Below, in pieces: positions 28,094 through 53,970 of a DNA stretch of 64,000 nt; position 1 is the first letter of the stretch, and every line of letters begins with the position of its first letter. The stretch is from Pyrinomonadales bacterium (lineage in GTDB: Bacteria > Acidobacteriota > Blastocatellia > Pyrinomonadales > Pyrinomonadaceae): the NCBI GenBank assembly GCA_038212935.1, contig JBBQTV010000002.1, positions 21,004 to 85,003 on the forward strand, read 5' to 3'. Both the position numbers and the translations under genes were made by a program. The notes under the pieces are model-generated. The model was not told the origin of the DNA and did no database searches. It worked only from the letters and a program-made list of their open reading frames with translations.

Positions 28094-30631
28094 ATGAACT
28101 TCTTTTCAAAACTATACATCACCCGATACCCGCTTATTCTGGGTGCTATCTTCTTGGTAGGTCTTCCGCTTGGTGCCTACTACAATGGAGCTCCGTCTAG
28201 GCTCCTTCGGGGCCTTTTCGATCTAGACCACGGCGTTTCATTCTTTTGGATGACACTCGCCGTCAACCTCTTTTCCTGGTCAATTCTCATACTGCTTCGC
28301 ATCATATTGATTTATGGCCCCGAGCGGATGGGCTATGAAAAATCGGAGGATGAGATCCGAACGATTCAAAAGGATTCCACGGGAAAGGTATTCTTCTTTA
28401 TTGGGTTTCTACTGCCCATCCCCTTGATTGTTTTGTCAGTGCATTATTCGGAACTCGTGTCTGCACTTCATAAACTATTGGGGATCGCCGGCGGGACAGT
28501 TGTGTCGGTTATAGTTGTTTATGCTGCTGACCTGCTTCAACGACTTTTTAACGCCTTTCACAACGGTGAAACGGATGAATTCGGTCAGAAAGACGAACAT
28601 TCGGGGAAAAGGCTGTTATTTCCATTTGATACAAAGCTGGCGAGGAGTGCAGAAGAGTCTCCGTGGGCTAAGAAGATGTTCGAACTTCGTGCGGTTTCAA
28701 TGATGGAATCCGCACTCGGAAGAATACCCTCAACAATTGGAAAAGGATTCCTGCGACGTCGGAAAGGTAAAGATAAAGTAGAAGAAGTTGTATCAATATT
28801 CCCTGGTCACATATTAGCGCTTATTGTGTTCCTTCTTTATTTCACCTTATTTTCTACCGGTGTTATCTTATGGAATCTAGATCTCACGTCAGATGACGGA
28901 CTACGTCCCGACTATCACTTTTCTACCATTACTTACCTTCTTTTGCTCGTTACCGCAATTCTCTGGGCTATATCGCCCCTCGCGTTCATCCTGGACAGGT
29001 ATCGGTTGCCTGTCCTTCTCATTTTGCTCCCGGTCTTCTTGTTCGTCTTAAAGTCAGACCATTATTACGACGCGCCGCCTAATGAGGCTAGTGTGGATGC
29101 AAACTCGAAGAATATTCAAAGAGTGAGCCCTGAGGAATTGTTTAGGCAACGGAGTGGTGATGAAAATGTAATCTTTGTATCGGCAATCGGAGGCGGTATT
29201 CAAACTTCCTCTTGGGCGACCGAGGTCCTGACTCGACTTGACGAAAAGTGTACAACGTCAACAGGCTTCAAGGAGGACTGTCGAGATGCGATCGCCCTTG
29301 TCAGTGGCGTCTCGGGGGGCAGCGTCGGTGCAATGTATTATATGGAAACCTACGAGAATGACCATCGCGAAAACAAGGAAATACCTAAAGAGACTGATGC
29401 AGATCAGCGTAGTCGAATCAAGCAATATTCCCGCTCCTCTAGCCTTGACTATGTTGGAGCCTCAATGATATTCGACGATTTTCCAAGTCTGATTCCATTT
29501 TTTCGAACATCGATTGAAAATGATCGAGGCATACATCTCGCCAGAGGATGGGTTGACAATATGAAAAGGGTTGACAAGCTTGCTCTCACGCCTTCAAACC
29601 GAAGGAGGATACCGGAAACCCCGTTGCGCGAGTGGCACCATTCGGGTGCGAAACGACCAGCATTTGTATTCAGTTCGACCGTGGCGGAGACCGGAGAAAG
29701 AATCCTAATCTCAAGTGCATCATTCCCAAAACGCTCATTTGATTCCTATGCCGCCGCGCGATCATTCGAAGAGTATGTCGGTTACGAATCCGGTGACACC
29801 AATATACTTATAAAAGATGCTGTCCGACTTTCCGCGGCATTTCCATTAGTATCGCCCGCGTCAAAACTCAGATATGACTCTAAGGCAAAGTACGTGATAG
29901 ACAGTAAAGAATTGCGACCGAGTGCCTTAAATTCCCATTTGGTAGATGGTGGCTATCACGATAATTTCGGAGTGCTCGCTATTAGAGATTTCATTCGGAT
30001 GGGAATTGCCGGCTGGTCAAAGCCAGATCCGGGTGCCCCGAAACGCGTATCTCCCAGGATCGCAATAATTCAGATAAAAGGGGAAGAATCAATTCAGCCT
30101 CCCAGGGACTGTTCAGATCTAAACTACGAGACGCGGAACGAGCAAGACGAAGAGGAAAAGCAAAGTAAACGAGACTATTGGCAAAGAATTAGGGACAAAT
30201 GGGAGAATGAAATGAAACTGACGTACAACGTTCAACTCATGGCCCCTCTTAATGCATTTTGGAGGGTGGTTTGGACAGTTCAGGATACACGCACTGAAGA
30301 TGCGATCAGAGAAATCCAGGCTGGTTATCTGAAAGAACGACGTTATGTATTCGGCGTTGATTTTGACGTTTTTACCTTTCCTTACCGCACTGATTCCAAG
30401 GACGGCACCAAAAAAAGCCCGGGAGCTCCTCTTTCATGGCATCTCACAGCCTCCGATATCAAGGCAATCGAAGATGCTGGAGACGTAAACTTCGCCGATG
30501 CGCCGAGTTCGGAATGGACGCGACTCAAAGAGTTTCTGCGGGGGAATGGTAAAGAGCGGCAAGTTTGCATCCCAGGAGTCGGGGCAACTAGTCCAGACCA
30601 TACTGACAACACTAAAGTGGCAAGTAAATGA
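28094..30631 (+). CDS. polytopic membrane protein fused to a patatin-like phospholipase domain
   Basis: About seven hydrophobic helices in the first ~330 aa. Patatin motifs: oxyanion VSAIGGGIQTS, nucleophile GVSGGS (GxSxG, about aa 405), and catalytic Asp in LVDGGYHDNFG (about aa 618). A ~165-aa C-terminal extension is unassigned. Confidence 0.8.
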   Translation: MNFFSKLYITRYPLILGAIFLVGLPLGAYYNGAPSRLLRGLFDLDHGVSFFWMTLAVNLFSWSILILLRIILIYGPERMGYEKSEDEIRTIQKDSTGKVFFFIGFLLPIPLIVLSVHYSELVSALHKLLGIAGGTVVSVIVVYAADLLQRLFNAFHNGETDEFGQKDEHSGKRLLFPFDTKLARSAEESPWAKKMFELRAVSMMESALGRIPSTIGKGFLRRRKGKDKVEEVVSIFPGHILALIVFLLYFTLFSTGVILWNLDLTSDDGLRPDYHFSTITYLLLLVTAILWAISPLAFILDRYRLPVLLILLPVFLFVLKSDHYYDAPPNEASVDANSKNIQRVSPEELFRQRSGDENVIFVSAIGGGIQTSSWATEVLTRLDEKCTTSTGFKEDCRDAIALVSGVSGGSVGAMYYMETYENDHRENKEIPKETDADQRSRIKQYSRSSSLDYVGASMIFDDFPSLIPFFRTSIENDRGIHLARGWVDNMKRVDKLALTPSNRRRIPETPLREWHHSGAKRPAFVFSSTVAETGERILISSASFPKRSFDSYAAARSFEEYVGYESGDTNILIKDAVRLSAAFPLVSPASKLRYDSKAKYVIDSKELRPSALNSHLVDGGYHDNFGVLAIRDFIRMGIAGWSKPDPGAPKRVSPRIAIIQIKGEESIQPPRDCSDLNYETRNEQDEEEKQSKRDYWQRIRDKWENEMKLTYNVQLMAPLNAFWRVVWTVQDTRTEDAIREIQAGYLKERRYVFGVDFDVFTFPYRTDSKDGTKKSPGAPLSWHLTASDIKAIEDAGDVNFADAPSSEWTRLKEFLRGNGKERQVCIPGVGATSPDHTDNTKVASK

Positions 30632-30878
30632 GTAGAAAAGAGGGTTGGTTCTTGAACGTATCCACGGGCCTCAGTGTCGTCGCAATTGTGAATATTTTCG
30701 ATCGTCACGAACTGACCTAATTTTTCGTTAGTAAGTTGGCCCCAAACGACTATCGGCAGGGCTTAGAAATGACCGCCCTATCCACGGCATTTTGCTCATT
30801 TGTCGTAACGTCGCTCCCAACTTTTGGGGATTGCCAATTCCACCCGAAAAGAAGTTTTGACAAAGATGTGGAGAAAAT

Positions 30879-32477
30879 ATGGGTTACAGATTTTCACTCG
30901 ACGACATCAACATCGTTGCCTATTTAACCGCCGAGAAGCTCAGCAAGAAATCGACTCCACGCATCACATACGAACAACTTGCGAGTTTTGTCTATTCACT
31001 GTATTACGGTCTGGAAGATCCCTATCAAGATATATTCATTTCGCCAAAGGATGACTGGACTCCAAAGATGACGAAGATTGTAAATGAGGCAAAAGAACGA
31101 TTCGAAGCCTTGAAATCGCCTCCTTGGAACCCACGAGGTATTGAAAACTTCCGCGACGCTTTCACATTTCAACAGAATCAATTTGTGAGTCAGGACACAA
31201 TTACCCGTGTTTTAGGCGGGCTTCGCAAGGAACTTAGCCGGTTTGACCTCTATGGTCTACCCGTTGACCAGACAGGCGGTAGGATCTTCAAACTCGCAGA
31301 GAGATTCGCAAAGGCGTTACGTGGACGCGGCTTGTTCCTACTTCCCATCGAGGGGTATAAGAATCATCCCGAGAAAATTCAAAGCCTTCAATTCCTCGAT
31401 CCATTTCCTGCAGTTCAGGCACTGGCAAATGCGGATCTCCAGCGGCCGGGGATGCTGCTTTGGACGCAAACGGGCGAAGCCACCTATGAAACGAATGAAG
31501 ACACTTTAAATTTGCACTTAACTAGGTTGCCGGACTTACTCAAAAGCGAGTTTATGGATACTTTCCGGCGGCTCGTCTCGGGAGATGGTACGTTTCGACG
31601 ACACATTCTTCATTTAAGCGATCTTCACTTTGGCACACCGACAGCTTACGAGAATCGGACAAGGCTAAAGAATGAACTTCGTAGCTCTAAGCATGCTTGG
31701 GATCAGGTTGTCATCACGGGTGATCTCTTCGAGGTGATCAATGACCGCGATGCAATCGACTTTGACGATTTTCGAAATGACCTTCGGAGTATAACAGGAC
31801 GCGACATTCTGGTTGTCCCCGGAAATCACGACCAAAACTATCTCGGAAATCGGTTTGGTTTCGTCGGAAAGAGCTTGAACGGTATTGCAAAGCTCGAATG
31901 GACGCGGCTTAAGGTAGACGACAGGGCGCGATGCGTCCATCTGTGTTTCGACTCTTCTCTCGATTCGAAATTTGCCGCCACAGGGGTTTTCTCCGAATCG
32001 GAACGGAACGCGGTTGAAGATGCTTTTAACACCTGCGTATTGGAAAACCCTAAAATCGACGAGTACTTTCGCGTCGTGCTCATTCACCATCACCCATTTT
32101 CGTTTGAAACCGACCAAGAATCGATCATTCAACGAGCATTAAAAGTGTTTGGACATAGTGACGAGCGTTTTCTGGCGATGACTAACAGCGAGTTGCTGAT
32201 CAAATGGTGCGCAAACATGCGGGTATCCCTAATCCTTCACGGACACAAGCACGTACAGAGGCACTTCGTCAGTGAGGTGGTCAACAAATTCGGAGATACC
32301 ATTCCCTTACACGCCGTTGGGTGCGGGACGTCACTGGGTGCCGAGAATTACCCGTTAACATACAATACTGTCGCCTACAATGACGAAACAAAGAACTTTA
32401 GTGTCACGTTTTATGAGGATGACAGAACGGGTGGCGGCTTTGTTCCTGTTAAGATTGCTCTTCAAATAGTTAAATAA
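30879..32477 (+). CDS. calcineurin-like metallophosphoesterase with ~240-aa unknown N-terminal domain
   Basis: Full MPE ligand set in order: LSDLHFG, VITGDLFE, VVPGNHDQ, VLIHHHP, LHGHKHV. This is the class III phosphodiesterase / CpdA-type pattern. Confidence 0.8.
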   Translation: MGYRFSLDDINIVAYLTAEKLSKKSTPRITYEQLASFVYSLYYGLEDPYQDIFISPKDDWTPKMTKIVNEAKERFEALKSPPWNPRGIENFRDAFTFQQNQFVSQDTITRVLGGLRKELSRFDLYGLPVDQTGGRIFKLAERFAKALRGRGLFLLPIEGYKNHPEKIQSLQFLDPFPAVQALANADLQRPGMLLWTQTGEATYETNEDTLNLHLTRLPDLLKSEFMDTFRRLVSGDGTFRRHILHLSDLHFGTPTAYENRTRLKNELRSSKHAWDQVVITGDLFEVINDRDAIDFDDFRNDLRSITGRDILVVPGNHDQNYLGNRFGFVGKSLNGIAKLEWTRLKVDDRARCVHLCFDSSLDSKFAATGVFSESERNAVEDAFNTCVLENPKIDEYFRVVLIHHHPFSFETDQESIIQRALKVFGHSDERFLAMTNSELLIKWCANMRVSLILHGHKHVQRHFVSEVVNKFGDTIPLHAVGCGTSLGAENYPLTYNTVAYNDETKNFSVTFYEDDRTGGGFVPVKIALQIVK

Positions 32478-33724: not shown

Positions 33725-35803
33725 TTATGGGTTGCCCACTTGCACGTCGAACGCCTGCTGAATCAGGTCGATCGCGTCGTCGATCTCGTCAACCGAGCTT
33801 ATCTTGGCTTCAACGTCTCCATTACCCCAACGACCAACACCCGTTAAGTCGCGGCACATACCCTTTGGATCATGGACCTCGTCAAAGCTCATATTCAGCG
33901 ACAGTCGAAGAGCCGACGCGAGCGGAACTATGTCAACAAAATTGGTAGCGGATTTATATGCAATATATAGCTTTTTGAACTCCTCTCTAACAGAAGGGTC
34001 GATGTTGAGTATTCGCAATCGCAACTGATTGAACAGATCTAACATTTCATCTTTTAGATATGGAAAGTTCTCAAGGGCATAGCCGGTGTCAGCTTGGAGT
34101 TCTTGGGGGCGATACGTACCTAGAACTTCGTCAGGAAGGTTTGGGGCTGCCCAAATTGTCTTCGCCTTTTTCGCTAGATGTCGTGCCCTTGTTTCGATCT
34201 CTTGCTCCGTCCAGCGATCAGCCTGACGAACATACTCGTTTAACCTAAGAGGCGAATCGTTAAAGCCGCCCGTCATTGCCTTCTTATAGCTAAACGGCCG
34301 GTCACTCAGCTCAGGGTTGTAGCCAGTGAGCGTGAGGTTTCCTAGCTTATGCAGGTTCCGTTGGTGGACTGCTGCCCAATCCGGTCCTAGCATCTCCTTC
34401 CATTCTGCCGATAACCGCGTGTTCTGCGGCATGATGTGCTCGATCGAGAGTGCTTCGGTATTCACGACTTCTTTTCGGCCGTCGTTTTCAAGCTTATTTA
34501 GGAAGTAATTACGCGGACGAAAGCTGTATAGATCTTTCGCAAGCAGTTCCGTTTCAAACTCGGCGTCGTTGGGGAACCGCTGATAACTTCTCATCAACTG
34601 GAACGCGGCCTCAACGCTCTCGACGTAGTTCTCTTTGTTTACAGACTTGTGCAGATTACCGAACGTCTTGTTCATGCTATTCGTAGGGATTCCGCAAACC
34701 GCCCGCCTTAGCACGTAACTCTCTATCAGATGAATAATCGTTAACAGGTCACTGCGCGAAAGAACACCTGCCTGAAAGTCCGCATAAAGGAAAAGCAGAA
34801 ACGGGTAACTTACGTCAACCTTCAGCTTAGAGATATTCTTGAAGGCTGCGCGCAGTTCATCGTCCGGCGTCTTATGTAAAACGATGTCGACATAGTAAGC
34901 GGAAAACTTGAAGATGTCGGCAACCAACTCCTCGATTTCCGGCTCGGTTACCCGATCCTTCGCAAATTCCTTGAAGTCATCGTACACCCTGCCGATTACG
35001 GGTATACGGCCCGTATTTACCGTGAGATAATCCCGAATAAACCAGTTGAACCGACCGGCGTAATCATTGCCATAGCTTTGTTCCATCGGAAACCAGTAGC
35101 GTTCGTACAGCTCGGTCTGGCGATCCGGTGGCTGACCCATAAGCATGAAGTTTCGGATCAGGTCCGCTTGAGAAAGGTCAAGGCCCGTTGAGTTTAGGCT
35201 CTCGAAAATTAACTGCGGATTGTCTTTATCTTTTTCCAAGGCCACGTCAACGACGAAAAGTTGTTGAATGCCGTTGTAGACGCGATGGACATTTTCTTCC
35301 GTGATCGACTTTTTAAAGAATTCGTAGTTTTCAACAACTCTGACCGATTCGTTCTCGCCGAACGGGGCCCGGCTCAAGACCTTGCGGAGCGTATCTTTGT
35401 CATGCCGAGTAAGGTGGAGTTTGAAATGCAGATCGCCTTCTTCCTCATCATTGACAAGGTAGTAATTCCTTAGCTTCTTCGCCGTCGTATCGAAGGCAAC
35501 GTCGTTGGCCTCGACAAACTCGGCAAGCGCGGCGATCAGAAGCGATATCGTAGTGAGGCGTTGTTGGCCGTCGATCACCAAGAGCCTGGGAACATCGCCC
35601 TGAGTGTGTATGCCGGGCTGGAAGTAAACTACTGAACCAACGAAATGACCGTGACGCGATTCGTCATGATTAACATCCAGAATGTCCTGAAACAACTTTC
35701 GGCAATGAGCAATCTGCCAACTATAAGTTCGTTGATAGATCGGAATCACAAATTGCTTAGGACCACGGATTAGCGAAAGAAAATTTAATGCAGAAGCTTT
35801 CAT
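33725..35803 (-). CDS. DUF262/DUF1524 (GmrSD-like) putative type IV restriction enzyme with extra C-terminal domain
   Basis: DUF262 blocks FVIPIYQRTYSW and VIDGQQRLTT. DUF1524 His-Me block LSIEHIMPQN...HKLGNLTLTGYNPELSDRPF. Start taken at internal ATG (MKASALNF..) rather than 35926. Confidence 0.8.
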   Translation of the reverse strand: MKASALNFLSLIRGPKQFVIPIYQRTYSWQIAHCRKLFQDILDVNHDESRHGHFVGSVVYFQPGIHTQGDVPRLLVIDGQQRLTTISLLIAALAEFVEANDVAFDTTAKKLRNYYLVNDEEEGDLHFKLHLTRHDKDTLRKVLSRAPFGENESVRVVENYEFFKKSITEENVHRVYNGIQQLFVVDVALEKDKDNPQLIFESLNSTGLDLSQADLIRNFMLMGQPPDRQTELYERYWFPMEQSYGNDYAGRFNWFIRDYLTVNTGRIPVIGRVYDDFKEFAKDRVTEPEIEELVADIFKFSAYYVDIVLHKTPDDELRAAFKNISKLKVDVSYPFLLFLYADFQAGVLSRSDLLTIIHLIESYVLRRAVCGIPTNSMNKTFGNLHKSVNKENYVESVEAAFQLMRSYQRFPNDAEFETELLAKDLYSFRPRNYFLNKLENDGRKEVVNTEALSIEHIMPQNTRLSAEWKEMLGPDWAAVHQRNLHKLGNLTLTGYNPELSDRPFSYKKAMTGGFNDSPLRLNEYVRQADRWTEQEIETRARHLAKKAKTIWAAPNLPDEVLGTYRPQELQADTGYALENFPYLKDEMLDLFNQLRLRILNIDPSVREEFKKLYIAYKSATNFVDIVPLASALRLSLNMSFDEVHDPKGMCRDLTGVGRWGNGDVEAKISSVDEIDDAIDLIQQAFDVQVGNP

Positions 35804-36019
35804 AATGTAAGTTGCGAAATTGTGTATCGCCACGAACCTTCGAAAATTAGGAAGGTAGGGGCTGTGGCGGCTCATTACCCTAGTAACCTGTACCAAAAGT
35901 TGGCCCCATTTGGAACCCGCTGCCATAACGGCGAGTTAACGACCAATGAAGGATTCGGTTCGTGATAAGCAGGATAAGGATCCTTGTAGTCCCGCAAATC
36001 CACGGACTAATTCCATATT

Positions 36020-37288
36020 TCAAAAATATGTAGCAATACGGTCTTGAAACTCACTCCTTGCAATAAGGCCAAGTTGCTCACGTTTCCACATCGGTTTTTT
36101 ATATTCGCAATCGATAAAAACTCCCTTTGTCGAGATTACGTATAAGCCCGCTTGATCCACGACTAAACAACAATTCGTCCGCGACGACGTGAATCTTTCG
36201 GCGCGGCGAGCACCCTTTGTCGGTACAAAGCTGTCGATATTCATATACTTTGCGACCTGACCAAAGATATCCTTTTCCGACAAAATGCTGAGTTTTGCTT
36301 CGCACGGAACCCACAGCCCACTGATTTTTACAAAGTTATCTACAATGCCCGTACTTTCGCCATTACGATAGCATTGACACTCTTCAAGAACCGTTGATCC
36401 CTTGTCTTTTATCGCGCCAAGAAAATGATCAAGCAAGTACGACCGAAGTTGGGCCTCATGGATGAATCGCGTTGCCGATAAGCATGAGATCTCCGCCCAA
36501 TTATCTTTGTCAACGTTGCGAAAGGTACCGTCCCCAAACGCTGCGGTCGAAAGGAACGGAGTGAGTAAATTGTCTTCTGCAAGAAGCGTTCTGATACCTT
36601 TCGCTTCGCGAGTGTAAACCGGCGTGATCGTGTTCTGGCCGATTTTCACATAATCCGCAAACCGTTCCGACGAAAGTGGTGTCTCAAATATCTGGACTTC
36701 GCCTAACGGAGCAAACAGCCTTCCATCAAAATGCTTTTCCGGCGGACCGAAATATTCGGTCGAGCCGGAGACAGACGCACAGCCGAATATTGTGCCCGAG
36801 TACATTTCAGCCTGGCCGGCCGCATGTTCTAAGATCGCGGTCAGTCCACGTTCTTCTGGATAAAGTCTTTTGGCCAATTTCCGCAATTTTTGCGCGTTAA
36901 GGCCACCCCTTTTTGTATGGTAAAAGAATAGAATGTCACCCTCGGTTAGCCATTTGGGGGCAGTCCACGATGTATCGTCGTCCGGAGTGAACCGAAGCAA
37001 GTAATCGAGATCCAGAAAGTTCTCGCCCCGGTCGCTGTTACTATTTAGCATCTCGAAAACGCCGTCAATTGAATTCGGAAATCCAATGCTTGTTATGCAC
37101 GATTGTGCCCATCGCGTTTCAACGCAGCTCTTGGTGCCCATGATTACTTTTCCCTCATCCAACTCGACGGTATGACGCAATGGCGAGCCCGAGTAAGACG
37201 AAGCCTGATCGTCAGCGAAATAGAGTCGCTTGATTAACTGTAGTTGTGCCCGTAGACTTCTCCGATACGAAGTTGGGTTCCTTATCAT
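36020..37288 (-). CDS. uncharacterised protein, possible PUA/EVE-like N-region plus PD-(D/E)xK nuclease-like C-domain; coupled to hsdR
   Basis: ATG lies 3 nt after the hsdR stop. The GDILFFYHTKRG / GTIFGCASVSG blocks are reminiscent of EVE/PUA-like folds. C-terminal FIHEAQLRSYLL...IVDNFV(D317)...VPCEAKL(E330,K332) fits the E..D..ExK nuclease pattern. All tentative. Confidence 0.5.
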   Translation of the reverse strand: MIRNPTSYRRSLRAQLQLIKRLYFADDQASSYSGSPLRHTVELDEGKVIMGTKSCVETRWAQSCITSIGFPNSIDGVFEMLNSNSDRGENFLDLDYLLRFTPDDDTSWTAPKWLTEGDILFFYHTKRGGLNAQKLRKLAKRLYPEERGLTAILEHAAGQAEMYSGTIFGCASVSGSTEYFGPPEKHFDGRLFAPLGEVQIFETPLSSERFADYVKIGQNTITPVYTREAKGIRTLLAEDNLLTPFLSTAAFGDGTFRNVDKDNWAEISCLSATRFIHEAQLRSYLLDHFLGAIKDKGSTVLEECQCYRNGESTGIVDNFVKISGLWVPCEAKLSILSEKDIFGQVAKYMNIDSFVPTKGARRAERFTSSRTNCCLVVDQAGLYVISTKGVFIDCEYKKPMWKREQLGLIARSEFQDRIATYF

Positions 37289-37291
37289 CTT

Positions 37292-40200
37292 CTACACCCA
37301 TGATTCCGACAGCGTCTCGGCTTGCTGAAGGACTAGGTCGATCGCGGCTTCTTGTTTGTCGGGCGGATATTTGTATTTGCGAAGTATATTCTTAACCATA
37401 ATTCGGAGACGGGCACGCACGGTTTCGCGGACGGACCAGTCGACCGTCGTACTACGCCGGAGTTTTTCGGTGAGTTCGATTGCGATCTTTTTCAGGATCT
37501 CATCGCCCAGCTCGCGGACCGATGCCTCGTTATCAGCAAGCGCGTCATAAAAAGCGACCTCATCCGTATTCAGTCCAAGCTTCTCGCCTTCGCTCGCGGC
37601 AGCTTGAAACTCTTTCGCCATCGCCACGAGTTCTTCGATAACCTGCATCGTCTCGATGGCTCGGTTGTGGTACTTATTCAGTGTCGAACTGAGCATCTCG
37701 GAAAACTTCTTGCTCTGGACAATGTTAGTTTTCATTCTGGCTTTGATCTCGTCCTTAAGAAGTCTTTTCAGAAGTTCTACGGCCAGATTTCGTTGAGGCA
37801 TCAGCTTCACCTCTTCGAGAAACTCGTCTGAAAGAATACCGATGTTGGGGCGATCAAGTCCGGCATACGAAAATATATCCAGAACTTCGTCTGATGCTAC
37901 TGCTCGGCTGAGTATCTGTTGGATTAGCAACTCACGCTGCTCATTCTTGTATTGCTTGTTTGATTCTTCGGGTTTACCGATAAACGCTTTCACAGCCTGA
38001 AAGAATGCAATTTCCTCGCGATAGCCGATCGCCTCGTCGAGCGTGCTGCACAAGGCAAAGGACTTCGTAAGAACCGTGACGCTGTCGAAGTACCTCTTCT
38101 TCCGATCGGGCCCTAGACCAAGAATATGGTCGGCGGCCTCTGGCAGTAATGTTATCGCCTCAGTTTCGAAGTCCTGATAATCAAATCCGTGGAACATACC
38201 GCGGATGATCATCATCTGTTCTTCTACTAGAGGAAGAGCTTTCTCGGCTGCGTCATTGTAGAGGTCGCCTTCACCGTCGGCTTCGGTATATTGTTTTAGT
38301 GCCGCTTGCAGCTCGTGGCCGATCCCGATGTAATCAACAACCAGACCGCCATCCTTTTCTTTGAACACACGGTTAACACGCGCTATCGCCTGCATAAGCG
38401 AATGTCCACGCATCGGTTTGTCGATATAGATGGTATGCAGGCTCGGCGCGTCAAAACCAGTGAGCCACATATCGCGAACTATGGCGACTTGGAAATCATT
38501 CTCCGGGTCCTTAAATCTTTTTTCCAGATCTTTCTTAACTAGCTTTGGATAGATGTGAGGCTGCAAACTGGGTTTATCGCTTGATGAGCCCGTCATGATT
38601 ACCTTCAAAACACCCTTAGCCGGATCGGGGTCATGCCAGTCGGGACGGAGAGCAACTATCTCGTCATAAATCCTTACGCAGATGTCGCGGCCCATTGCGA
38701 CAAACATGGCCTTGCCCGGACCGGCTGTTGTCTTCGACATCTCGGTTTGCCGAGCCTCAAAGTGCTTTACAAAATCCGCGGCGATCTTCTTTAGCCTTTG
38801 TTCCGCACCCACGACCTTTTCCAGAGCTGCCCAGCGGCTGTGCGACCGCGCCCGTTCTGTCTCTTCGTCGTCCTCAGTTAGTTCTTCAACCTGTTCGTCA
38901 AGTGTTGGGGCTTCCTCGTCGTTTAATTCGAGCTTCGCAAGCCTATTTTCGTACAGGATCGGCACCGTTGCACCATCTTCCTGAGCCTGCTTCATGTCGT
39001 AGATGTCGATGTAGGTGCCGAAGACGGCCTGCGTGTCCCTTTCGAGCATCGAGATCGGTGTGCCGGTAAACGCGATGAAGGAAGCTTTAGGAAATGCTTC
39101 GTGCAGGTAATGAGCGAAGCCGTATTTTATCTTTCCGGACTTTTGGTCAACCGTCGCGTTCAGGCCATACTGGGTTCTGTGTGCTTCATCCGCGATCACG
39201 ACGATGTTCGAACGGTCAGACAATAGCGGGAACGTTGCTTCATCTTCCAAAAGGCTGAATTTCTGAATTGTCGTAAAGATGATTCCGCCCGAAGGACGCC
39301 CCGCCAGCAGGTCGCGAAGCTCCTGACGCGTTTCCGCTTGCTTCGGAGTCTCCCGCATCAACTCCTTCGCATTCGAAAATGTCGCAAATAGCTGGCCGTC
39401 TAGGTCGTTGCGGTCCGTGACGACAATAATCGTCGGGTTCTTCATTTCCGGGGACGTAATTACCTTTCCGGCATAGAACGCCATCGAAATACTCTTGCCT
39501 GAACCTTGGGTATGCCACGCGACGCCTATCTTTCCTGTCTCGTCCGGCTTTGTAGCCTCAAGCGTTTTTGCAAACGCCTTCTTCACCAGATGAAATTGAT
39601 GATAGGCAGCAATCTTCTTTATCGTTTCTTTCTCTTCTTCAAACAAGACAAAATCGCGGATATACTCGAGCAGAAAACCGCGGCCGAATAGTCCCCGGAT
39701 GAGCGTTTCCGTCTCCTTGCTTTCGCCGAGAGGATCAAGCTGTATTCCGTCGATCGTTCGCCATCGTCCAAAGCGTTCGTAGTCCGCTGTCAGGCTCCCT
39801 ACTCTCGCTTCACGGAGGTCGGCTATCACAAGCAGCTCGTTAAAGGTAAACAGCTCGGGAATCTCAGCCTTATATGTCTGAAGCTGTTTGAAAGAATCGT
39901 AAATCGTCGTATTGATATCCGCCGGGTTTTTCAGCTCGAGAACTGCTATCGGCAAGCCGTTGATAAAGATGATGACATCCGGCCGCTTCGTGCCTTTTGG
40001 ACCCTTTATAGAAAACTGATTGACCGCGAGGAACTCATTGCTTTCGATATTCTCGAAATCGATAATCCGAACGAAGTCCGCTTTCGTTTCATTGTCTTCT
40101 TGGAACGTAACCTTAACGCCATCCCGAAGCTGCCGGTGAAACTCGCGGTTGTTCTGAATAAGCGAAGGAAAGTTCGGACGGGTTATCTGAACAATTGCAT

Positions 40201-40402
40201 CCTCTATCGCAGCCGCCGGAATGTCTAAATTGAACGCCGTCAGCCTTTCGCGCAACCGCCCGAAAAGAACAACCTCCCGATAATCCTTCCGCTCGGCCCT
40301 GTCCGTGTCAGGCGCGATCTCGTAGCCGTTTTCATAAACGTATCCGAGATCGGCCAGAATGCCGAGGAGGTGATTTTCGAACTGTTCTTCGGTTATTTTC
40401 AC
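37292..40402 (-). CDS. hsdR: type I restriction endonuclease subunit R
   Basis: N-terminal nuclease block PDVIIFINGLPIAVLELK. Helicase motifs HTQGSGKS and VVIADEAHRTQ. 1036 aa. GTG start. Confidence 0.9.
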   Translation of the reverse strand: MKITEEQFENHLLGILADLGYVYENGYEIAPDTDRAERKDYREVVLFGRLRERLTAFNLDIPAAAIEDAIVQITRPNFPSLIQNNREFHRQLRDGVKVTFQEDNETKADFVRIIDFENIESNEFLAVNQFSIKGPKGTKRPDVIIFINGLPIAVLELKNPADINTTIYDSFKQLQTYKAEIPELFTFNELLVIADLREARVGSLTADYERFGRWRTIDGIQLDPLGESKETETLIRGLFGRGFLLEYIRDFVLFEEEKETIKKIAAYHQFHLVKKAFAKTLEATKPDETGKIGVAWHTQGSGKSISMAFYAGKVITSPEMKNPTIIVVTDRNDLDGQLFATFSNAKELMRETPKQAETRQELRDLLAGRPSGGIIFTTIQKFSLLEDEATFPLLSDRSNIVVIADEAHRTQYGLNATVDQKSGKIKYGFAHYLHEAFPKASFIAFTGTPISMLERDTQAVFGTYIDIYDMKQAQEDGATVPILYENRLAKLELNDEEAPTLDEQVEELTEDDEETERARSHSRWAALEKVVGAEQRLKKIAADFVKHFEARQTEMSKTTAGPGKAMFVAMGRDICVRIYDEIVALRPDWHDPDPAKGVLKVIMTGSSSDKPSLQPHIYPKLVKKDLEKRFKDPENDFQVAIVRDMWLTGFDAPSLHTIYIDKPMRGHSLMQAIARVNRVFKEKDGGLVVDYIGIGHELQAALKQYTEADGEGDLYNDAAEKALPLVEEQMMIIRGMFHGFDYQDFETEAITLLPEAADHILGLGPDRKKRYFDSVTVLTKSFALCSTLDEAIGYREEIAFFQAVKAFIGKPEESNKQYKNEQRELLIQQILSRAVASDEVLDIFSYAGLDRPNIGILSDEFLEEVKLMPQRNLAVELLKRLLKDEIKARMKTNIVQSKKFSEMLSSTLNKYHNRAIETMQVIEELVAMAKEFQAAASEGEKLGLNTDEVAFYDALADNEASVRELGDEILKKIAIELTEKLRRSTTVDWSVRETVRARLRIMVKNILRKYKYPPDKQEAAIDLVLQQAETLSESWV

Positions 40403-40620: not shown

Positions 40621-42033
40621 TTAGGCCCAATAAGGAACGTAACGGGCATATCGTCTCGAAGCACTTTCAGGATCCTCTAATTTAATTAGGTCCTCGTCAA
40701 CAGCGTTTTTAATAATGCCTGACACGACATCCGCCCTAGATTCAGGCAGATCAAATCGTTCCCTAAGGGTCTGGTTTGTCATGCGTTCATTCATAAGAAA
40801 CTTCAAGCTACAGTGCTGGTAACAGGCTCGAACCTTATCCTTCTTGCTCATATCGCCAAATGGGATATGACCATAAAGAATTGCCGTGAAATGTTTCTCA
40901 CCGTTCCGAAAATCCGGAGCTGGTAGTTGCCACGTCTCCACATAAAGAACGACCTTGTCAATTCCGCTGCCTTGACGTTCACAGACCTTGAGTCTGCGCA
41001 TGATGTCCGCTAAAGTCTCGTTCCGCGATTGATAGCTATCCAGGAGTCGGTTCGGATCAATGGATGAGGGTCCGGGGTTCCCGATTTCCATTCGATCCGA
41101 ATAGATGTCGATTGTTACAAACATCCCCCTCTCATTCAGGTCCTGATGAACGAGAGCGTTAGCGACCAGCTCACGAATAGCTATGTCGGGGTACATCTTC
41201 ACATCTTCTCTGAACGCTTTCCCGATGACTTCGTTGGAGGGAAGACGCGAGTCGATATAGTCGATCAACCCTTCAAAACCGGCAATGTAACCTTTACGTC
41301 CGAAAATATCTGACTTCGTTTTGAGCTTGTTCTTTCCGTCATAAACCGTAACTCGCGCCGCCTTATCCTTAACTGCTTCGAAGCTCTGCAACTCTTTGGC
41401 GAATAACACGGCTCCCAAATTGGTAATGCTATATCCGGAGTCTGAGGACACGATCAGCTTCTCTTCAACAAACCGGTCCATGACCGTCAATCGTGTCGCC
41501 GGATAAGGGAGCTTGAGAAGGTCGAAGTATACCTGGGTATCGAGTAACCTGACGACATCCTCCGCTGATTGGTCCGCGAGAGCGATCTGCGATAGAAAAT
41601 CCGGTTTGCCCTCATCGAAGATCTTACGAAGCTGGTCAGCAGACATCGGCACTAAATCTTCGCCGACCCGCATCAAATAGGCTCCGTCGAGGTTCATAGC
41701 GGTGCCGGGTGGTCGAGGCGGAATATGAAAAATGACGACGCGACCATTTGGATGGGCCACCTCTTCGGCATCAACTCGAATACGAAGCTTATCGAAGATC
41801 TTCGATTTAATATCGTTAATATCGAGGAACGCTCGACTCCCGACAACCCGTCGTGGGTTAGCATCGTTAATCCCGAGAATTAACTTTCCGCCACCTTCGT
41901 TCGAAAGTGCAACACAGTATCGATGAAGTTTGGTTATGTCGTAGTGGTTTTTGGCTTCCTTGAATTCAAGCCTCTCGCCTTCCTCGGACTCCATCCACCT
42001 CCCAAGTTGTTCTATTGTAACCGCCAAATTCAC
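40621..42033 (-). CDS. AlbA_2 (Schlafen-like) DNA-binding domain protein with HATPase_c_4-type C-region
   Basis: ESEEGERLEFKEAKN...ALSNEGGGKLILGI (AlbA_2-type) and IRELVANALVHQD (HATPase_c_4 type). This family is commonly annotated as a putative transcriptional regulator or ATP-binding protein in R-M loci. Confidence 0.7.
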   Translation of the reverse strand: MNLAVTIEQLGRWMESEEGERLEFKEAKNHYDITKLHRYCVALSNEGGGKLILGINDANPRRVVGSRAFLDINDIKSKIFDKLRIRVDAEEVAHPNGRVVIFHIPPRPPGTAMNLDGAYLMRVGEDLVPMSADQLRKIFDEGKPDFLSQIALADQSAEDVVRLLDTQVYFDLLKLPYPATRLTVMDRFVEEKLIVSSDSGYSITNLGAVLFAKELQSFEAVKDKAARVTVYDGKNKLKTKSDIFGRKGYIAGFEGLIDYIDSRLPSNEVIGKAFREDVKMYPDIAIRELVANALVHQDLNERGMFVTIDIYSDRMEIGNPGPSSIDPNRLLDSYQSRNETLADIMRRLKVCERQGSGIDKVVLYVETWQLPAPDFRNGEKHFTAILYGHIPFGDMSKKDKVRACYQHCSLKFLMNERMTNQTLRERFDLPESRADVVSGIIKNAVDEDLIKLEDPESASRRYARYVPYWA

Positions 42034-42079
42034 CGCCTCTGTTTAAAGGATATTTGCCCTAATTATTTATCCAAGTCAT

Positions 42080-42202
42080 CCCGATTCCTTACGCTTAGCT
42101 CGTTCGCAACGCACTTCGATGTCGCAGCCATTTCGAAAATGTATCCGAGATCGGCCAGAATGCGGGAAGATGATTTTCGAATTGTTCTTCGTTCTTTCGC
42201 AT
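42080..42202 (-). pseudogene. frameshifted remnant of an hsdR 5-prime end (first ~40 codons)
   Basis: 42121..42202 aligns with 40321..40402 (...gtatccgagatcggccagaatgc.g..ga.gatgattttcgaa.tgttcttcg.t..tt..ca.). MRKNEEQFENHL.. compares with MKITEEQFENHL.. . A 1-nt deletion is present. Its ATG lies 19 nt after the HEPN gene stop. Confidence 0.7.
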
Positions 42203-42221
42203 TCTCACTTAGCACCACTCT

Positions 42222-43070
42222 TTATTTAACATTCTGGTGAATGTCGTTAAGAGCAGCTTTTAAAACTTGCCAACAAATCTTCGCTGTGTGTTCATCTGGG
42301 CAAAATCCAGACGACAACTGCTGATACGGATGAATATAATTCCTAAAATCTCGGAGCGTGTGGCTGAACTTTTTTACGTCAAGTCCCAGAATACCGAGAT
42401 TATGAGAGACGTCTATGAAATCATTCAGTGTCCATTCATGAAACTGTTTCGTCTTTCCGGAAGTTGCGTCTCTTGGACTAACCGCTGATTGATTGAACTT
42501 CTTTGGATCAGAAGACGCGAGGCCAAGTAGCAAGCCTTCTAAAACACTTCCGCAAAGAAAGATAACTGCGAACGGAGCTTCAGCTTTCAGACATTTCTTT
42601 AATTCCCTTATTCGCCCGTCTAAAATAGTGGAGACTTGCCCGTCAAGTTTCAGCTTTGACAACGGAACTTCGTCAACATCCCCATTTAGGAACTCGTCAA
42701 TCGTTTTCGGTTCCTCCCTTTTCGGCGCGGTCCTTCCTTGCAATCGGCGTGCGGTTCCTAAGCAGCTTTCCAGTAGTGGGGCTGGCGGTATTGAAGAACC
42801 ATTAACGTTCATGTCCGGATCCACAAGAACGGCGATTATGTCTTTTATTAATTTTCCGACACGAGCGTCGCTCTCGGTGTCCCAAAGCAACCGTAACCTT
42901 TTCGCCTTAGATATGCTTGGGCCTCCAAACCTTGCAGATTGAATATCCAGGCCAGTTGAATCGCGAACGAACTGTCGGAATGAGGCATTAGTGAAGTCGA
43001 GGACATAACCTGACTCCATCTCAAAGAGTTTTTCTAATTTAGATTTCTCGACGTTGGTCAAATTGGCCAT
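42222..43070 (-). CDS. AbiJ-like protein: N-terminal AbiJ-NTD-type region plus C-terminal HEPN domain
   Basis: N-terminus LEKLFEMESGYVLDFTNASFRQFV...SISKAKRLRLLW resembles AbiJ N-terminal domains as I recall them. The C-terminus has LRDFRNYIHP (Rx6H / RNxxxH HEPN motif, about aa 240-247). Confidence 0.5.
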   Translation of the reverse strand: MANLTNVEKSKLEKLFEMESGYVLDFTNASFRQFVRDSTGLDIQSARFGGPSISKAKRLRLLWDTESDARVGKLIKDIIAVLVDPDMNVNGSSIPPAPLLESCLGTARRLQGRTAPKREEPKTIDEFLNGDVDEVPLSKLKLDGQVSTILDGRIRELKKCLKAEAPFAVIFLCGSVLEGLLLGLASSDPKKFNQSAVSPRDATSGKTKQFHEWTLNDFIDVSHNLGILGLDVKKFSHTLRDFRNYIHPYQQLSSGFCPDEHTAKICWQVLKAALNDIHQNVK

Positions 43071-43124
43071 TACTGGGTTAAATCTGTTGCGATTATTTCT
43101 TCATGCGCGCTCGCACCGAGTAAA

Positions 43125-44177
43125 CTAGCCATAGAGCTTTTTTAGTGCATTTTCCGTGAATTGCATTGGATCTCCGGCGACTTTATCAATTACTTTGAGG
43201 TTAATTGTTCCAGCGTTTCGGCGGTCCCGAAGAAGCTCGGCGAATGGCACATCTAATGTTTCAAACGTAGGATTAACGACTCGAAGTTCGTTTCCGCCCC
43301 CGGCTTTTAGGAACTTCCTGATGAAATGATTGATGTGGGGGTCACGGAACGAATAACCAATGACCGTAAGGATGTTGGTATTTGCTAGCTGCTCATCCCA
43401 GACGCGAAGTAAATCGAGAAATGGCCCTTCAGTCGTTAGCTTATTCCGTTGACCGAAGATAACCATATTTGTATCGTCGAGAACCATGAATCTCTTCGCC
43501 TCATTGAGGCTCGACTTACTATAAATAATCGGCGACGGCATCGCGTCGCCAGCTAGAGAAGTGCCGGGATCTGTCCAGTACCAATAGCACGAACCGTGAA
43601 GCTTTATTAATTTTATTGTGTGATTGTTATACTGAATCGCCCCATTCTTTTCCCATGCTTTGATGCCTGTATCCCAAGAAATATTCCGATTCTCGCATAA
43701 CAATTCAACTGCGTTGTCGTAGTTAAGCGTCGCGACAAAAAGATTATTCTGCCTTTGAGCGAGATTAAGAATTGGGGCTAAGTATTCGACCCGGTTTGCA
43801 TCTTTTATAGTGGTCAACTCTTCAAGCATCCCTGTCATTCGATAGCGTATCTCTTTGAAATGGGCTGGAGCTTCAGGAATTGCGGCAAGACCAGGCTTCC
43901 ATTCTTCGACAAATCGTGCGATCTCGAGACTGTCCCGTTCCTCCAGAAGCAATAGCGCATTGTAGAGCGATTCTACATCGACACAATCTTCTTTGGGATT
44001 GAGCTTCTGCTCGTGTTCGATTAGTGTGTCATTGACGAAATTCAGTGCATCTCGAAATCTCGCGTTCCGATCGTCGGAATTGAACTTCTCGACAATGTGT
44101 TTCGACATCTTCCAAGCGCTCGGAACGCCGGCTTCAACGGATGCACCGGCGGCGAACAACAACATTTCATTTCCCAT
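43125..44177 (-). CDS. SIR2-like (SIR2_2 family) protein
   Basis: LLFAAGASVEAGVPSAW Rossmann start and IKLIKLHGS block. 350 aa. Starts 9 nt after the hsdS stop. Confidence 0.7.
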   Translation of the reverse strand: MGNEMLLFAAGASVEAGVPSAWKMSKHIVEKFNSDDRNARFRDALNFVNDTLIEHEQKLNPKEDCVDVESLYNALLLLEERDSLEIARFVEEWKPGLAAIPEAPAHFKEIRYRMTGMLEELTTIKDANRVEYLAPILNLAQRQNNLFVATLNYDNAVELLCENRNISWDTGIKAWEKNGAIQYNNHTIKLIKLHGSCYWYWTDPGTSLAGDAMPSPIIYSKSSLNEAKRFMVLDDTNMVIFGQRNKLTTEGPFLDLLRVWDEQLANTNILTVIGYSFRDPHINHFIRKFLKAGGGNELRVVNPTFETLDVPFAELLRDRRNAGTINLKVIDKVAGDPMQFTENALKKLYG

Positions 44178-50070: not shown

Positions 50071-50075
50071 AGTCG

Positions 50076-51365
50076 CTAGGGCCGGATTCCATTTTGGGCA
50101 AGCGCCTGTTCTACAACTGGTTGCCAATTCCCTTGATGCGCTTTGCTATAAACTTCAAATCTCTTCAGTTCGCCATCCGTGAATCGCTTGGTACGAAAGA
50201 TATCAGGTAGGAAGCGTCTTTTTTCGCTACTGTTAAAAATATATACCTTTCCCACTTCGTTGAATTCAACGACCAGAGCTCTCCCGAAATCCAATATGAA
50301 AGCACTTTGTGACCCATCTTTCTTTCCAAAATGCTTACTCCCGTCACGCAACTCAGAGTTAAGTCGATAGCGATCCGTATCAGTAAGCAGCGGGCGAGAC
50401 ACTGGCGTGTTTGAGCGAACGTAACGTAGCCAAAAATCCGCTCTTTTATGACGATCATTTGTCATTACCTTCTTAAAGAAGAAAACAATGTCCTCCCTAG
50501 TCAATTGCTGAAGGACCTTCTTTTTGGAATCCTCCATCCCAATCCAACTGGCGGGGCGAAGTCTTGGATCTCCAAGACGGTTTACATCGCTTACGACGTA
50601 ATCAACGAGTCGAGCTTTAACATCGCTTGAATCATCGAAAGCCTTAGACATTACCGCGCCATTCACATGCTTTTTGAACGCCCCGATCTCATGCTTGTCC
50701 CAGCCAAGAATCTGATACACAAAGTAGTCGAGTGTCGCGGGGTTATCGAGTTTATTGGCGCATGATTGAGCACATTCAGAAACTACCTCTCGAAAGAACT
50801 GGGTATCTTCGAACAACCGGAAGTCCGCAATGGAATGTTCCAACGGCATTTTCTTCTTGAGGAATTCTTCAGCCAATCTCGTGACCGAGTCAGCGAACAG
50901 CAGAAGCGGAAGATTTTCCTGCCATTTTTTGAGAACTCCGTTCGGCCCGCTATAGGTCATGATGGCTTCTCTAAGTCCCAAGAACTGAGGTAGGTGCTGC
51001 ACGTCCGCCCATCTTGAGTGAAAGCTGTAAACTAAACCTTGTATTGATTTAGCCGAGTTCCTGGTGCGCTCGGAATTTACCATCAGATTCCAAAACCGGT
51101 TCTCTACAGCAATCTTCGGATACCACGATAAGTTTCGCATTACCCTTGATGAAACCTGCTCAGTTCGTCCAGCTATATATGCTTCCCAATCCCGAATATG
51201 AGAATCCGACGGCTTCTGCGGTTTAGCTATGGCATCAATAGTATCTATTGCCTTCGCTAATGCAGGCAGGTTGAAATTAGAGAAATTTCGATTGTGACGC
51301 GCGGCGGTATCGTTGAACCCGCGATTCGCAAACGTCAAGTTTTGAAGCCCTTCTCTTAAACTCAT
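50076..51365 (-). CDS. zorC: ZorC-like protein (assigned by position)
   Basis: About 430 aa between zorB- and zorD-like genes with 4-5 nt gaps. I did not recognise a diagnostic motif, so the call rests on synteny. Confidence 0.55.
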   Translation of the reverse strand: MSLREGLQNLTFANRGFNDTAARHNRNFSNFNLPALAKAIDTIDAIAKPQKPSDSHIRDWEAYIAGRTEQVSSRVMRNLSWYPKIAVENRFWNLMVNSERTRNSAKSIQGLVYSFHSRWADVQHLPQFLGLREAIMTYSGPNGVLKKWQENLPLLLFADSVTRLAEEFLKKKMPLEHSIADFRLFEDTQFFREVVSECAQSCANKLDNPATLDYFVYQILGWDKHEIGAFKKHVNGAVMSKAFDDSSDVKARLVDYVVSDVNRLGDPRLRPASWIGMEDSKKKVLQQLTREDIVFFFKKVMTNDRHKRADFWLRYVRSNTPVSRPLLTDTDRYRLNSELRDGSKHFGKKDGSQSAFILDFGRALVVEFNEVGKVYIFNSSEKRRFLPDIFRTKRFTDGELKRFEVYSKAHQGNWQPVVEQALAQNGIRP

Positions 51366-51369
51366 GAAT

Positions 51370-52065
51370 TCATTTTTCTTCCACGGCAGACACGGCTTTG
51401 TTAACGACCTTTTCTTCATGTGAGCGAACACGTATCTTGAAGACTACGCGTCGGCTCTTTGCCGAATCCTCAGTCCCATTGTCATCTCGATATGGATCAA
51501 CGCTTCCCCTTCCCGTCGCAGAAACAAGGTCGAGAAAACAAGGCCGTGTAATTTGCTCGTTATCAGTTTTCTGAGCGTCTGCCTTACCCAATATACCTAG
51601 AGTCTCCCTAACGACCGACATTGAACGCTGTTGACTGAGCGGCAGATTTATTTCATCCCCACCTGATTTGTCTGCATGCCCTTCAACGACGATAGAACTG
51701 ACCTCCTGCCTAAACTCGCCGGAACACAAAGTCTCCGCCAACTTGGGAGTGATTCGTTGCAAAAAAACAAGACCCTGATCCGGAATGTCCGCCTTGTTAA
51801 CTGGGAAATTAAGCAGGCCCTCGGGCACCACGACTATTAGACTCAGCGGGTCGTCCTTGTCGTCCTTGAGTTCAAGCCCTTTGTACTCCACAAGCTCTTG
51901 ATTCAATGTTTCTCTGAGTTTAGCGAGAATGTTTTCTCGAGATTGTCGGACCTCTTGTTGTTTGTTGTTCATAGTGGCAACAAGCAGCAATATAAAAATG
52001 ACCGCCAAGGAGGTCATCAAGTCTGTCATCGAGCTTGAGAGGCCCGAGTTATTGTCTGTTGCCAT
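51370..52065 (-). CDS. zorB: ZorB-like MotB/OmpA-family stator subunit
   Basis: MotB-type N-terminus SSMTDLMTSLAVIFILLLV (Asp before TM) and OmpA-like block VVEGHADKSGGDEINLPLSQQRSMSV. Overlaps zorA by 17 nt. Confidence 0.8.
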   Translation of the reverse strand: MATDNNSGLSSSMTDLMTSLAVIFILLLVATMNNKQQEVRQSRENILAKLRETLNQELVEYKGLELKDDKDDPLSLIVVVPEGLLNFPVNKADIPDQGLVFLQRITPKLAETLCSGEFRQEVSSIVVEGHADKSGGDEINLPLSQQRSMSVVRETLGILGKADAQKTDNEQITRPCFLDLVSATGRGSVDPYRDDNGTEDSAKSRRVVFKIRVRSHEEKVVNKAVSAVEEK

Positions 52066-53941: not shown

Positions 53942-53970
53942 TATATTGTGCAATTAACATTTCGAATAGA

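Follow-up and report, generated by a model that had tools for sequence, protein, structure and literature searches.

What does the gene directly behind hsdR encode in the type I restriction-modification (R-M) cluster of a Pyrinomonadales bacterium: a further component of that system, or an enzyme that acts on its own? The gene is contained in a 64,000 nt stretch of assembly GCA_038212935.1 (contig JBBQTV010000002.1, forward-strand positions 21,004 to 85,003), which is called the window here and in whose coordinates all positions are given. It is an open reading frame (ORF) of 422 aa, referred to as the reader-nuclease after its two predicted parts, a putative reader of modified bases and a nuclease. 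We consider, with somewhat better than even confidence, that its product is a single-polypeptide, stand-alone, type IV-like modification-dependent anti-phage nuclease residing in a defence island. The following features of the gene are used throughout.

36020..37288, minus strand: reader-nuclease ORF, 422 aa from the first ATG, with the stop codon at 36020-36022
36023..36499, minus strand: PD-(D/E)xK nuclease domain of the RecB/Cas4/MGME1 type, residues ~264-422 (domain model, Foldseek)
36245..36382, minus strand: catalytic motif block (conservation)
36380-36382, minus strand: E303 of the motif block
36338-36340, minus strand: D317 of the motif block
36293-36301, minus strand: E330-x-K332 of the motif block
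36245-36259, minus strand: Q344xxxY348 (RecB-type) of the motif block
36539..37117, minus strand: PUA-like (EVE/YTH/ASCH-type) beta-barrel, residues ~58-250, putative modified-base reader (AlphaFold, Foldseek)
37142..37288, minus strand: N-terminal extension (codons 1-49) that most close homologues lack, translation uncertain
37139..37156, minus strand: alternative start M50, with its ATG at 37141-37139 and GAGGG at 37156-37152 (sequence, homologue N-termini)

The C-terminal part has the fold of a PD-(D/E)xK nuclease. The AlphaFold model of residues 252-422 alone has a pLDDT of 94.6 and a pTM of 0.90, and its Foldseek matches are all PD-(D/E)xK folds, including MGME1 (probability 0.89), Cas4 (4r5q, probability 0.91), the DrdV nuclease domain, I-Ssp6803I, RecU, Hjc, NucC, and Can2. 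MGME1, a human PD-(D/E)xK nuclease, also matches the second domain when the model of the whole protein is used as a query. Residues E303, D317, E330, K332, Q344, and Y348 are invariant in a set of 91 sequences, and their order, E...D...ExK...QxxxY, is characteristic of the RecB/Cas4 branch of the superfamily. Conservation was also counted in 146 representatives clustered at 50% identity, where E303 is kept in 140/141, D317 in 139/139, E330 in 136/138, K332 in 137/138, Q344 in 137/137, and Y348 in 135/136 of them, together with E278 (141/143), R282 (140/143), and D378 (130/131). Essential invariance of the catalytic residues across these representatives argues for an active enzyme.

With the RecB, Cas4, and MGME1 nucleases (PDDEXK_1 and relatives) the domain shares the core fold and the motif order E, D, ExK, QxxxY. 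It differs from them in several respects: no curated PD-(D/E)xK profile (e.g. PDDEXK_1, Cas4) matches the window protein or any of the 91 members, and its fusion partner is a reader domain and not a helicase or CRISPR module. A Cas4-like Fe-S cluster was also considered and rejected. Cysteines C269, C304, C306, and C374 are near-invariant in the close set, but only 36% of the diverse representatives retain C269 and 47% retain C374.

The AlphaFold2 model of the whole protein, built on the 91-sequence alignment (mean pLDDT 88.4, pTM 0.73), shows a helix at residues 5-24, a disordered stretch at 25-46, a barrel at ~58-250, a helical linker, and an alpha/beta domain at ~296-422. Within the barrel, residues 60-250 are mostly predicted at pLDDT >90, and a two-helix hairpin of ~40 aa (residues 126-163) is inserted after the strand ILFFYH. 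In a Foldseek comparison of the whole model with the PDB, matches to this first domain are almost all readers of the PUA-like superfamily (probability 0.89-0.99). They include EVE domains (2gbs, 1zce), the ASCH proteins EOLA1 and CXorf40A (5y7d, 6kir), the EVE-HNH enzyme VcaM4I (6yex_B), many YTH domains, and the N-domain of an archaeal McrB (6n0s). At the sequence level, Pfam EVE (PF01878) is the sole repeated match, found in 11/91 members with a best E-value of 0.0055, and the next family is found in 2/91. In P0077, the only member for which the EVE match was printed in detail, it covers profile positions 37-58 and falls on the GDxxFFYH motif. The most conserved residues of the reader domain are W108 (125/135), W113 (119/135), D118 (131/137), F121, F122, and H186, and Y123 is conserved as well. 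Judging from the model and its structural matches, residues ~58-250 can be assigned to the PUA-like superfamily.

These results agree with much of what a first-pass annotation, made from the letters of the window, had read in the protein. It had proposed a PD-(D/E)xK-like C-domain on the grounds of D317, E330, and K332, and we found these residues at the same positions in the translation, invariant in the 91 members and carried by a domain with nuclease matches in Foldseek. The middle part had been described as reminiscent of EVE/PUA-like domains, with reference to the segments GDILFFYHTKRG and GTIFGCASVSG, which were located at residues 117-128 and 165-175, respectively. In addition to the PUA-like matches in Foldseek, the weak EVE match of P0077 lies on the motif to which that annotation had pointed. 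Its statement that no named family could be recognised is correct as well: no Pfam, NCBIfam, PADLOC or PHROG model describes the protein, and searches of the window protein against Pfam, NCBIfam, PADLOC, PHROGs, and, as a single protein, the PDB sequences gave no meaningful match.

The family to which the gene belongs is large and thinly scattered. In an index of 5.8 billion proteins we found 107 homologue clusters, all annotated as hypothetical, mostly 365-390 aa long, and with E-values down to 2e-176. When 1.84 billion cluster representatives (50% identity clusters) were searched exhaustively with an HMMER profile, 573 clusters scored at E <= 1e-3, and 254 of them at E <= 1e-30; with this number of homologues, the ORF is far beyond chance. 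A pattern-seeded scan of 185,579 species genomes confirmed 15 loci in a sparse and patchy distribution, with hosts in Acidobacteriota, Chloroflexota, Mycobacterium, Tepidisphaeraceae, Rubrobacteraceae, Lentisphaeraceae, the Gastranaerophilales-type 'Scatousia', and Polyangia. The patchy spread of the family includes Planctomycetota, Lentisphaerota, and Myxococcota, and extends to at least seven phyla. Some members are fused to other modules: the relative P0100 carries Mrr_N, a winged helix known from the type IV enzyme Mrr, and others carry TPR or Sel1 repeats. A viral structure library provided no evidence for phage-encoded members; it returned weak matches only, to two uncharacterised giant-virus or unnamed proteins and to phage entries named 'PD-(D/E)XK nuclease' at poor E-values.

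Genomic surroundings were studied at 30 fetched homologue loci, of which about 26 are distinct and 14 have precomputed Pfam tables. Some of the copies in these loci are interrupted. In Mycobacterium sp. IS-1496 (L012:9986-11137) the gene contains an in-frame stop, in a Pyrinomonadaceae metagenome-assembled genome (MAG) a DDE transposase is inserted in it (L014:6056-8192), and in two long-read MAGs the copies are frameshifted (L006 and L016, near 10250-10460), where sequencing errors are possible. Such copies could reflect a fitness cost of the gene.

On the interpretation that we favour, the EVE-like barrel (~58-250) would bind DNA and read a flipped-out modified base, in a predicted pocket built from the conserved W108, W113, F121, F122, Y123, and H186. 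The PD-(D/E)xK domain, with E303, D317, E330-x-K332, and Q344xxxY348, would then cut the DNA with a divalent metal. The reader-nuclease would act alone and complement the type I system, so that the type I enzyme would cut unmodified foreign DNA and the reader-nuclease, along with the GmrSD-family enzyme encoded next to it, would cut DNA that evades type I restriction by base modification. Since the host has an HsdM that forms 6mA, a cytosine-type or hypermodified base may be a likelier target than 6mA. The first-pass annotation had suggested a type IV-like nuclease; the architecture of reader and nuclease holds in the models and in Foldseek, and the dependence on modification is what we infer from it.

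Enzymes of comparable design are known. The architecture that joins EVE to a PD(D/E)XK phosphodiesterase was catalogued in 2020 by Bell et al. among type IV candidates, many of which need sensitive detection (PMC7641849), and the EVE-HNH enzymes VcaM4I and TspA15I are characterised reader-nuclease analogues (PMC7897488, PMC6765204). Like them, the window protein unites an N-terminal PUA-superfamily reader and a C-terminal nuclease in one polypeptide, occurs in defence contexts and usually has no adjacent methyltransferase, and VcaM4I is among its best structural matches. Unlike the EVE enzymes, its family stays below the Pfam EVE gathering score and has the ~40-aa helical hairpin after the GDxxFFYH strand; unlike EVE-HNH, its nuclease is PD-(D/E)xK with a RecB-type QxxxY and no HNH. 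YenY4I, for which cleavage dependent on 5mC/5hmC and restriction of T4gt, both weak, have been demonstrated (Lutz et al. 2019, PMC6765204), likewise belongs to a group with a PUA-superfamily N-domain and a C-terminal PD-(D/E)XK. It differs in its length of ~600 aa, a DUF3427 middle domain, and a DUF3883-type nuclease (PMC6765204), whereas neither DUF3427 nor DUF3883 is matched in Pfam by the window protein, which has a short helical linker in their place. END nucleases (PMC12191111) were compared too and are unrelated, their reader being an inactive EndoIII domain. The architecture and its predicted role are thus already in the literature, and this family is covered by none of the curated models searched.

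Several points weigh against a modification-dependent restriction enzyme. Foldseek E-values are weak, 8.6e-3 at best for the nuclease domain alone and, for the whole model, from 5.7e-3, the best value for the N-domain, to 0.1, where the target-normalised TM is <=0.57 and probabilities are 0.7-0.99. No member reaches the EVE gathering score (P0077 has 12.9 bits against a cut-off of 23), and the window protein itself is without an EVE match. Searches of PDB sequences with a profile of the whole family and with a diverse 31-sequence N-domain profile produced chance matches only, and the link to EVE therefore rests on structure and on the weak Pfam matches. In the literature, we found no paper on the family and no characterised member. 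Furthermore, the nearest nuclease folds, MGME1 and Cas4, are exonucleases or ssDNA-processing enzymes, with no classical restriction endonuclease among them, and at a few MAG loci the neighbours are housekeeping genes, including those for MetRS, methionine synthase, DnaA, and SmpB.

Two alternatives draw on these same observations. The first is a nuclease of defence or toxin type in which the PUA-like domain would respond to a signal other than a modified DNA base: RNA, as YTH, ASCH, and many EVE proteins do, DNA ends or, by way of the variable extensions, a phage protein. Such a nuclease would act by abortive infection or end-processing. The RNA readers YTH and ASCH/EOLA1 among the top structural neighbours, the end-processing activity of MGME1 and Cas4, the TPR/Sel1 fusions of some members, which are typical protein-binding sensor modules, and the toxin-antitoxin genes PemK and AbiE near some loci are all consistent with it. 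It is less easily reconciled with VcaM4I, the sole enzyme among the N-domain matches that combines reader and nuclease, which is dependent on DNA modification (PMC7897488), or with the Mrr_N fusion, which points toward modified DNA, and no antitoxin-like small gene is consistently adjacent at the examined loci. We regard this alternative as a minor but appreciable possibility. The second alternative is a housekeeping nuclease of DNA repair or recombination that came to lie beside hsdR by chance, in line with its MGME1- and Cas4-like fold and with the MAG loci just mentioned. The patchy phyletic spread, with 15 confirmed loci in all the species genomes scanned, the frequency of defence genes as neighbours, and the interrupted copies (L014, L012, L006, L016) speak against a housekeeping role, and we consider it very improbable.

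We have also addressed the relation of the reader-nuclease to the gene upstream of it, which is listed here.

37292..40402, minus strand: hsdR, type I restriction subunit (Pfam), directly upstream of the reader-nuclease and in the same frame; genomic context, no conserved partner

HsdR is complete, with HSDR_N, SWI2_SNF2, T1R_D3-like, and T1RH-like_C domains in Pfam, the last one covered over positions 3-328 of 329. Its stop codon TAG (37294-37292) is followed by AAG and then by the ATG at 37288-37286, and the junction reads ...TGG GTG TAG AAG ATG ATA..., which confirms the gap of 3 nt given in the first-pass annotation. The two ORFs share one reading frame. A read-through fusion with HsdR across the in-frame stop was considered and rejected, the C-terminal domain of HsdR being complete already, and no HsdR-sized fusion of the reader-nuclease was present among the best 150 family representatives of the HMMER search. 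In crude consensus scans, no promoter- or terminator-like site was detected between hsdR and either of two candidate starts, and co-transcription with hsdR is therefore likely whichever start is used. Within the type I R-M cluster the reader-nuclease occupies the 3' end, probably on one transcript with hsdR.

The two candidate starts are the first ATG (M1) and M50. The conserved core opens at about residue 58-62 (Q62, WAQSCITSIGFP), and most close homologues start 5-17 aa earlier; their N-termini align near query residues 45-55, which matches M50. The Shine-Dalgarno-like GAGGG, with a 10-nt spacer to the M50 ATG, resembles the sites of other genes in the window. A codon-usage log-odds score trained on 13 genes of the window is 1.7 for codons 1-49, compared with 9.0 +/- 3.9 in true coding windows of 49 codons (1.2th percentile); it nonetheless exceeds the scores of 99% of off-frame and 84% of antisense windows. 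In the AlphaFold model, the helix at residues 5-24 has pLDDT 60-79, and the disordered residues 25-46 are below 50. Other observations favour M1: no stop codon interrupts the frame between the hsdR stop and M50 (chance ~0.09), a start codon occurs within two codons of that stop (chance ~0.09), the database copy of the window protein is called at 422 aa, and other parts of the family have N-terminal extensions of variable length (30-300 aa). M1 is an uncertain start, and translational coupling to hsdR, which depends on it, is at most a possibility. From the view that the gene is very likely co-translated with hsdR, co-transcription can thus be retained, as no promoter or terminator separates the genes, and co-translation becomes doubtful together with M1.

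The association with hsd genes is restricted to the window. In tblastn searches with the window's proteins, no relative of HsdR, HsdM or HsdS was found in about 26 homologue loci, and HSDR_N, HsdM_N, and Methylase_S are absent from the Pfam tables of the 14 loci that have them. This gives no support to the proposal that the protein is a fourth component of the R-M operon or an accessory factor of HsdR; the question posed with that proposal, whether homologues are consistently found downstream of hsdR, is answered in the negative for these loci. In the loci of the closest homologue (P0002, 70% identity), the gene follows an SF1 helicase with RNase_H_2 and AAA_11/AAA_12 domains in Pfam. This upstream gene was inspected as a possible HsdR and rejected, with no similarity in BLASTP and the above domain composition.

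Neighbours at other loci are recognised defence proteins (DruA, BrxC, MkoA-like, SoFic, McrBC, and others), which supports the reading as a stand-alone anti-phage nuclease. They comprise McrBC with a type ISP enzyme, PemK, an AriA/Old-like ATPase, SoFic, a PLD-SNF2 protein with an Eco57I-like methyltransferase, a Mokosh-like helicase, an SF1 helicase with a NERD/UvrD-like helicase, BrxC elsewhere, a series of NurA, DUF87, and patatin genes, and the Bil and AbiE genes. In addition, patatin and Metallophos genes occur near homologues in L028 and L001, and an RmuC gene near the homologue in L021. Among the loci examined, adjacent DNA methyltransferases are confined to the window (HsdM) and L025 (Eco57I-like), and this scarcity fits the published pattern of PUA-nuclease enzymes (PMC6765204).

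Two neighbours are recurrent. A pair formed by a GHKL ATPase of ~505 aa (HATPase_c_3, MzaB-like) and a subsequent DruA of ~690 aa (PADLOC DruA, 1e-179) lies within 8 kb of the reader-nuclease at five loci, whose homologues are 31-50% identical to the query. DruA is immediately followed by the reader-nuclease gene in L014 and L017. L029 contains in addition a convergent PDDEXK_1 gene and a 1,858-aa DEAD/MZB (DruE-like) gene, both assigned by Pfam, and L014 has convergent genes of 418 and 1,857 aa, whose identity as PDDEXK_1 and DruE-like is deduced from gene sizes. A Druantia-like variant may recurrently carry members of the family, either as passengers or as one of its components. The second neighbour, a helicase of ~1,140 aa with RNase_H_2 and AAA_11/AAA_12 (MkoA-like), is present in three independent contexts, one of which is that of the closest homologue. 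The positions are as follows.

L014:2392-15169: GHKL ATPase and DruA locus
L017:6442-11125: GHKL ATPase and DruA locus
L023:2812-10113: GHKL ATPase and DruA locus
L026:773-10122: GHKL ATPase and DruA locus
L029:1-17050: GHKL ATPase and DruA locus
L001-L004: MkoA-like helicase as the gene upstream of the reader-nuclease
L005:15905-19375: MkoA-like helicase beside or near the reader-nuclease
L025:10277-13699: MkoA-like helicase beside or near the reader-nuclease

The frequency with which such genes occur upstream raises the question of whether the protein rides on them as an accessory factor. It would then dock onto the upstream translocase or ATPase (HsdR here; DruA with GHKL, BrxC, McrBC or SF1/UvrD helicases elsewhere), supply modification sensing or an extra nuclease, and in the window be made by termination-reinitiation at the hsdR stop. 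Such a role generalises the fourth-component proposal of the first-pass annotation. A large NTPase gene often precedes the reader-nuclease immediately and in the same orientation, with few nucleotides between them or with overlapping ends (3 nt for HsdR, 60 nt for the RNase_H_2-SF1 helicase, ~70 nt for the UvrD-like helicase, ~22 nt for BrxC, and 68 nt and a 10-nt overlap for DruA), and the five loci with a GHKL and DruA pair, as well as the frame shared with hsdR and open from its stop, with the ATG two codons on, are also in accord with such a role. Furthermore, EVE proteins beside type I systems are predicted to target modified DNA jointly with HsdR (PMC7641849). Against this, the partners come from unrelated families, for which no common docking surface is expected, no NTPase gene is upstream at L005, L024, L027, L007, and L009, and the reader-nuclease has a complete, invariant nuclease site of its own. 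The missing HsdR-sized fusion and the doubtful M1, on which coupling depends, also disfavour docking, and we judge it unlikely. A broader form of this idea, in which the family would be a portable nuclease module for sensing modified DNA that combines with ATP-driven defence machines of unrelated kinds, here with HsdR through termination-reinitiation, appears quite unlikely.

The stand-alone nuclease that we favour would operate within a rich defence context. In the window, the genes of a co-directional cluster follow one another, from high to low coordinates, as RmuC, probable ZorA, ZorB, ZorC, ZorD, HsdM, HsdS, a SIR2-like gene, an unknown 282-aa gene, AlbA_2/HATPase_c_4, HsdR, the reader-nuclease, and GmrSD with DUF5655. 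The features around hsdR and the reader-nuclease are these.

33725..35926, minus strand: type IV restriction enzyme of the GmrSD family, carrying DUF5655 at its C-terminus and located 93 nt downstream of the reader-nuclease; genomic context
40621-44177, minus strand: three genes between hsdS and hsdR, encoding SIR2_2, an unknown 282-aa protein, and a 470-aa protein with AlbA_2 and HATPase_c_4
47146-53953, minus strand: type I Zorya system, directly upstream of hsdM, with ZorD (2.6e-178), ZorC, and ZorB
54063-55562, minus strand: RmuC, beyond Zorya
28094-32477, plus strand: patatin-like phospholipase and calcineurin-like metallophosphoesterase, flanking the defence cluster

In the GmrSD-family protein, DUF5655 covers residues 627-728 and the Pfam match opens at residue 52; a weak terminator-like hairpin (35917-35902) lies within the first codons of the longest ORF, and for these two reasons its true start may be M42. 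The three genes inserted between hsdS and hsdR split the type I cluster by other probable defence genes. The SIR2_2 protein matches PADLOC Aga_SIR2-like (1.5e-34) with no Argonaute nearby, the 282-aa protein has no match in Pfam, PADLOC, NCBIfam or PHROGs, and the AlbA_2 domain of the 470-aa protein is of the Schlafen type. In the Zorya system, a 634-aa ORF with coiled-coil-like Pfam matches only occupies the position of ZorA. The patatin-like phospholipase, of 845 aa, has several hydrophobic segments in its N-terminal part and could form a further defence pair with the metallophosphoesterase, of 532 aa. Farther away, on the plus strand at 19107-23120, a secreted-looking protein of 1,337 aa combines lamin-tail, repeated Ig-like, DNA/RNA non-specific endonuclease, and C-terminal CarboxypepD_reg domains; it is probably an extracellular nuclease, unrelated to the reader-nuclease.

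A precedent for this arrangement is TgvAB of Vibrio cholerae VPI-2, where experiments have shown a type IV system to lie within a type I cluster and the authors suggest that the two complement each other (PMC11411939); stand-alone EVE/ASCH genes beside type I R-M have been reported as well (PMC7641849). As with TgvAB, a candidate for modification-dependent restriction is located in or at the end of an hsd cluster in the window, and jointly the systems would cover unmodified and modified invaders. TgvAB differs in being a two-protein GmrSD relative, unrelated in sequence to the window protein. A claim of linkage of the TgvAB type does not extend to the family, where the link to hsd occurs only in this window and in 0 of about 26 other loci.

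The finding has several consequences. As the family is without a model, its members would be missed by current defence annotation pipelines. The recurrent adjacency to GHKL and DruA genes could offer a clue to Druantia, a system that is still poorly understood. If the protein did serve as a portable module, the type I R-M enzyme would become dual-mode, restricting both unmodified and modified DNA. If, as we favour, it is a stand-alone modification-dependent nuclease, the family would represent a new branch of the type IV toolbox and a possible source of reagents for mapping modified bases. In this bacterium, the type I R-M system, the reader-nuclease, and GmrSD would then provide an example of layered defence, covering unmodified, modified, and glucosylated DNA.

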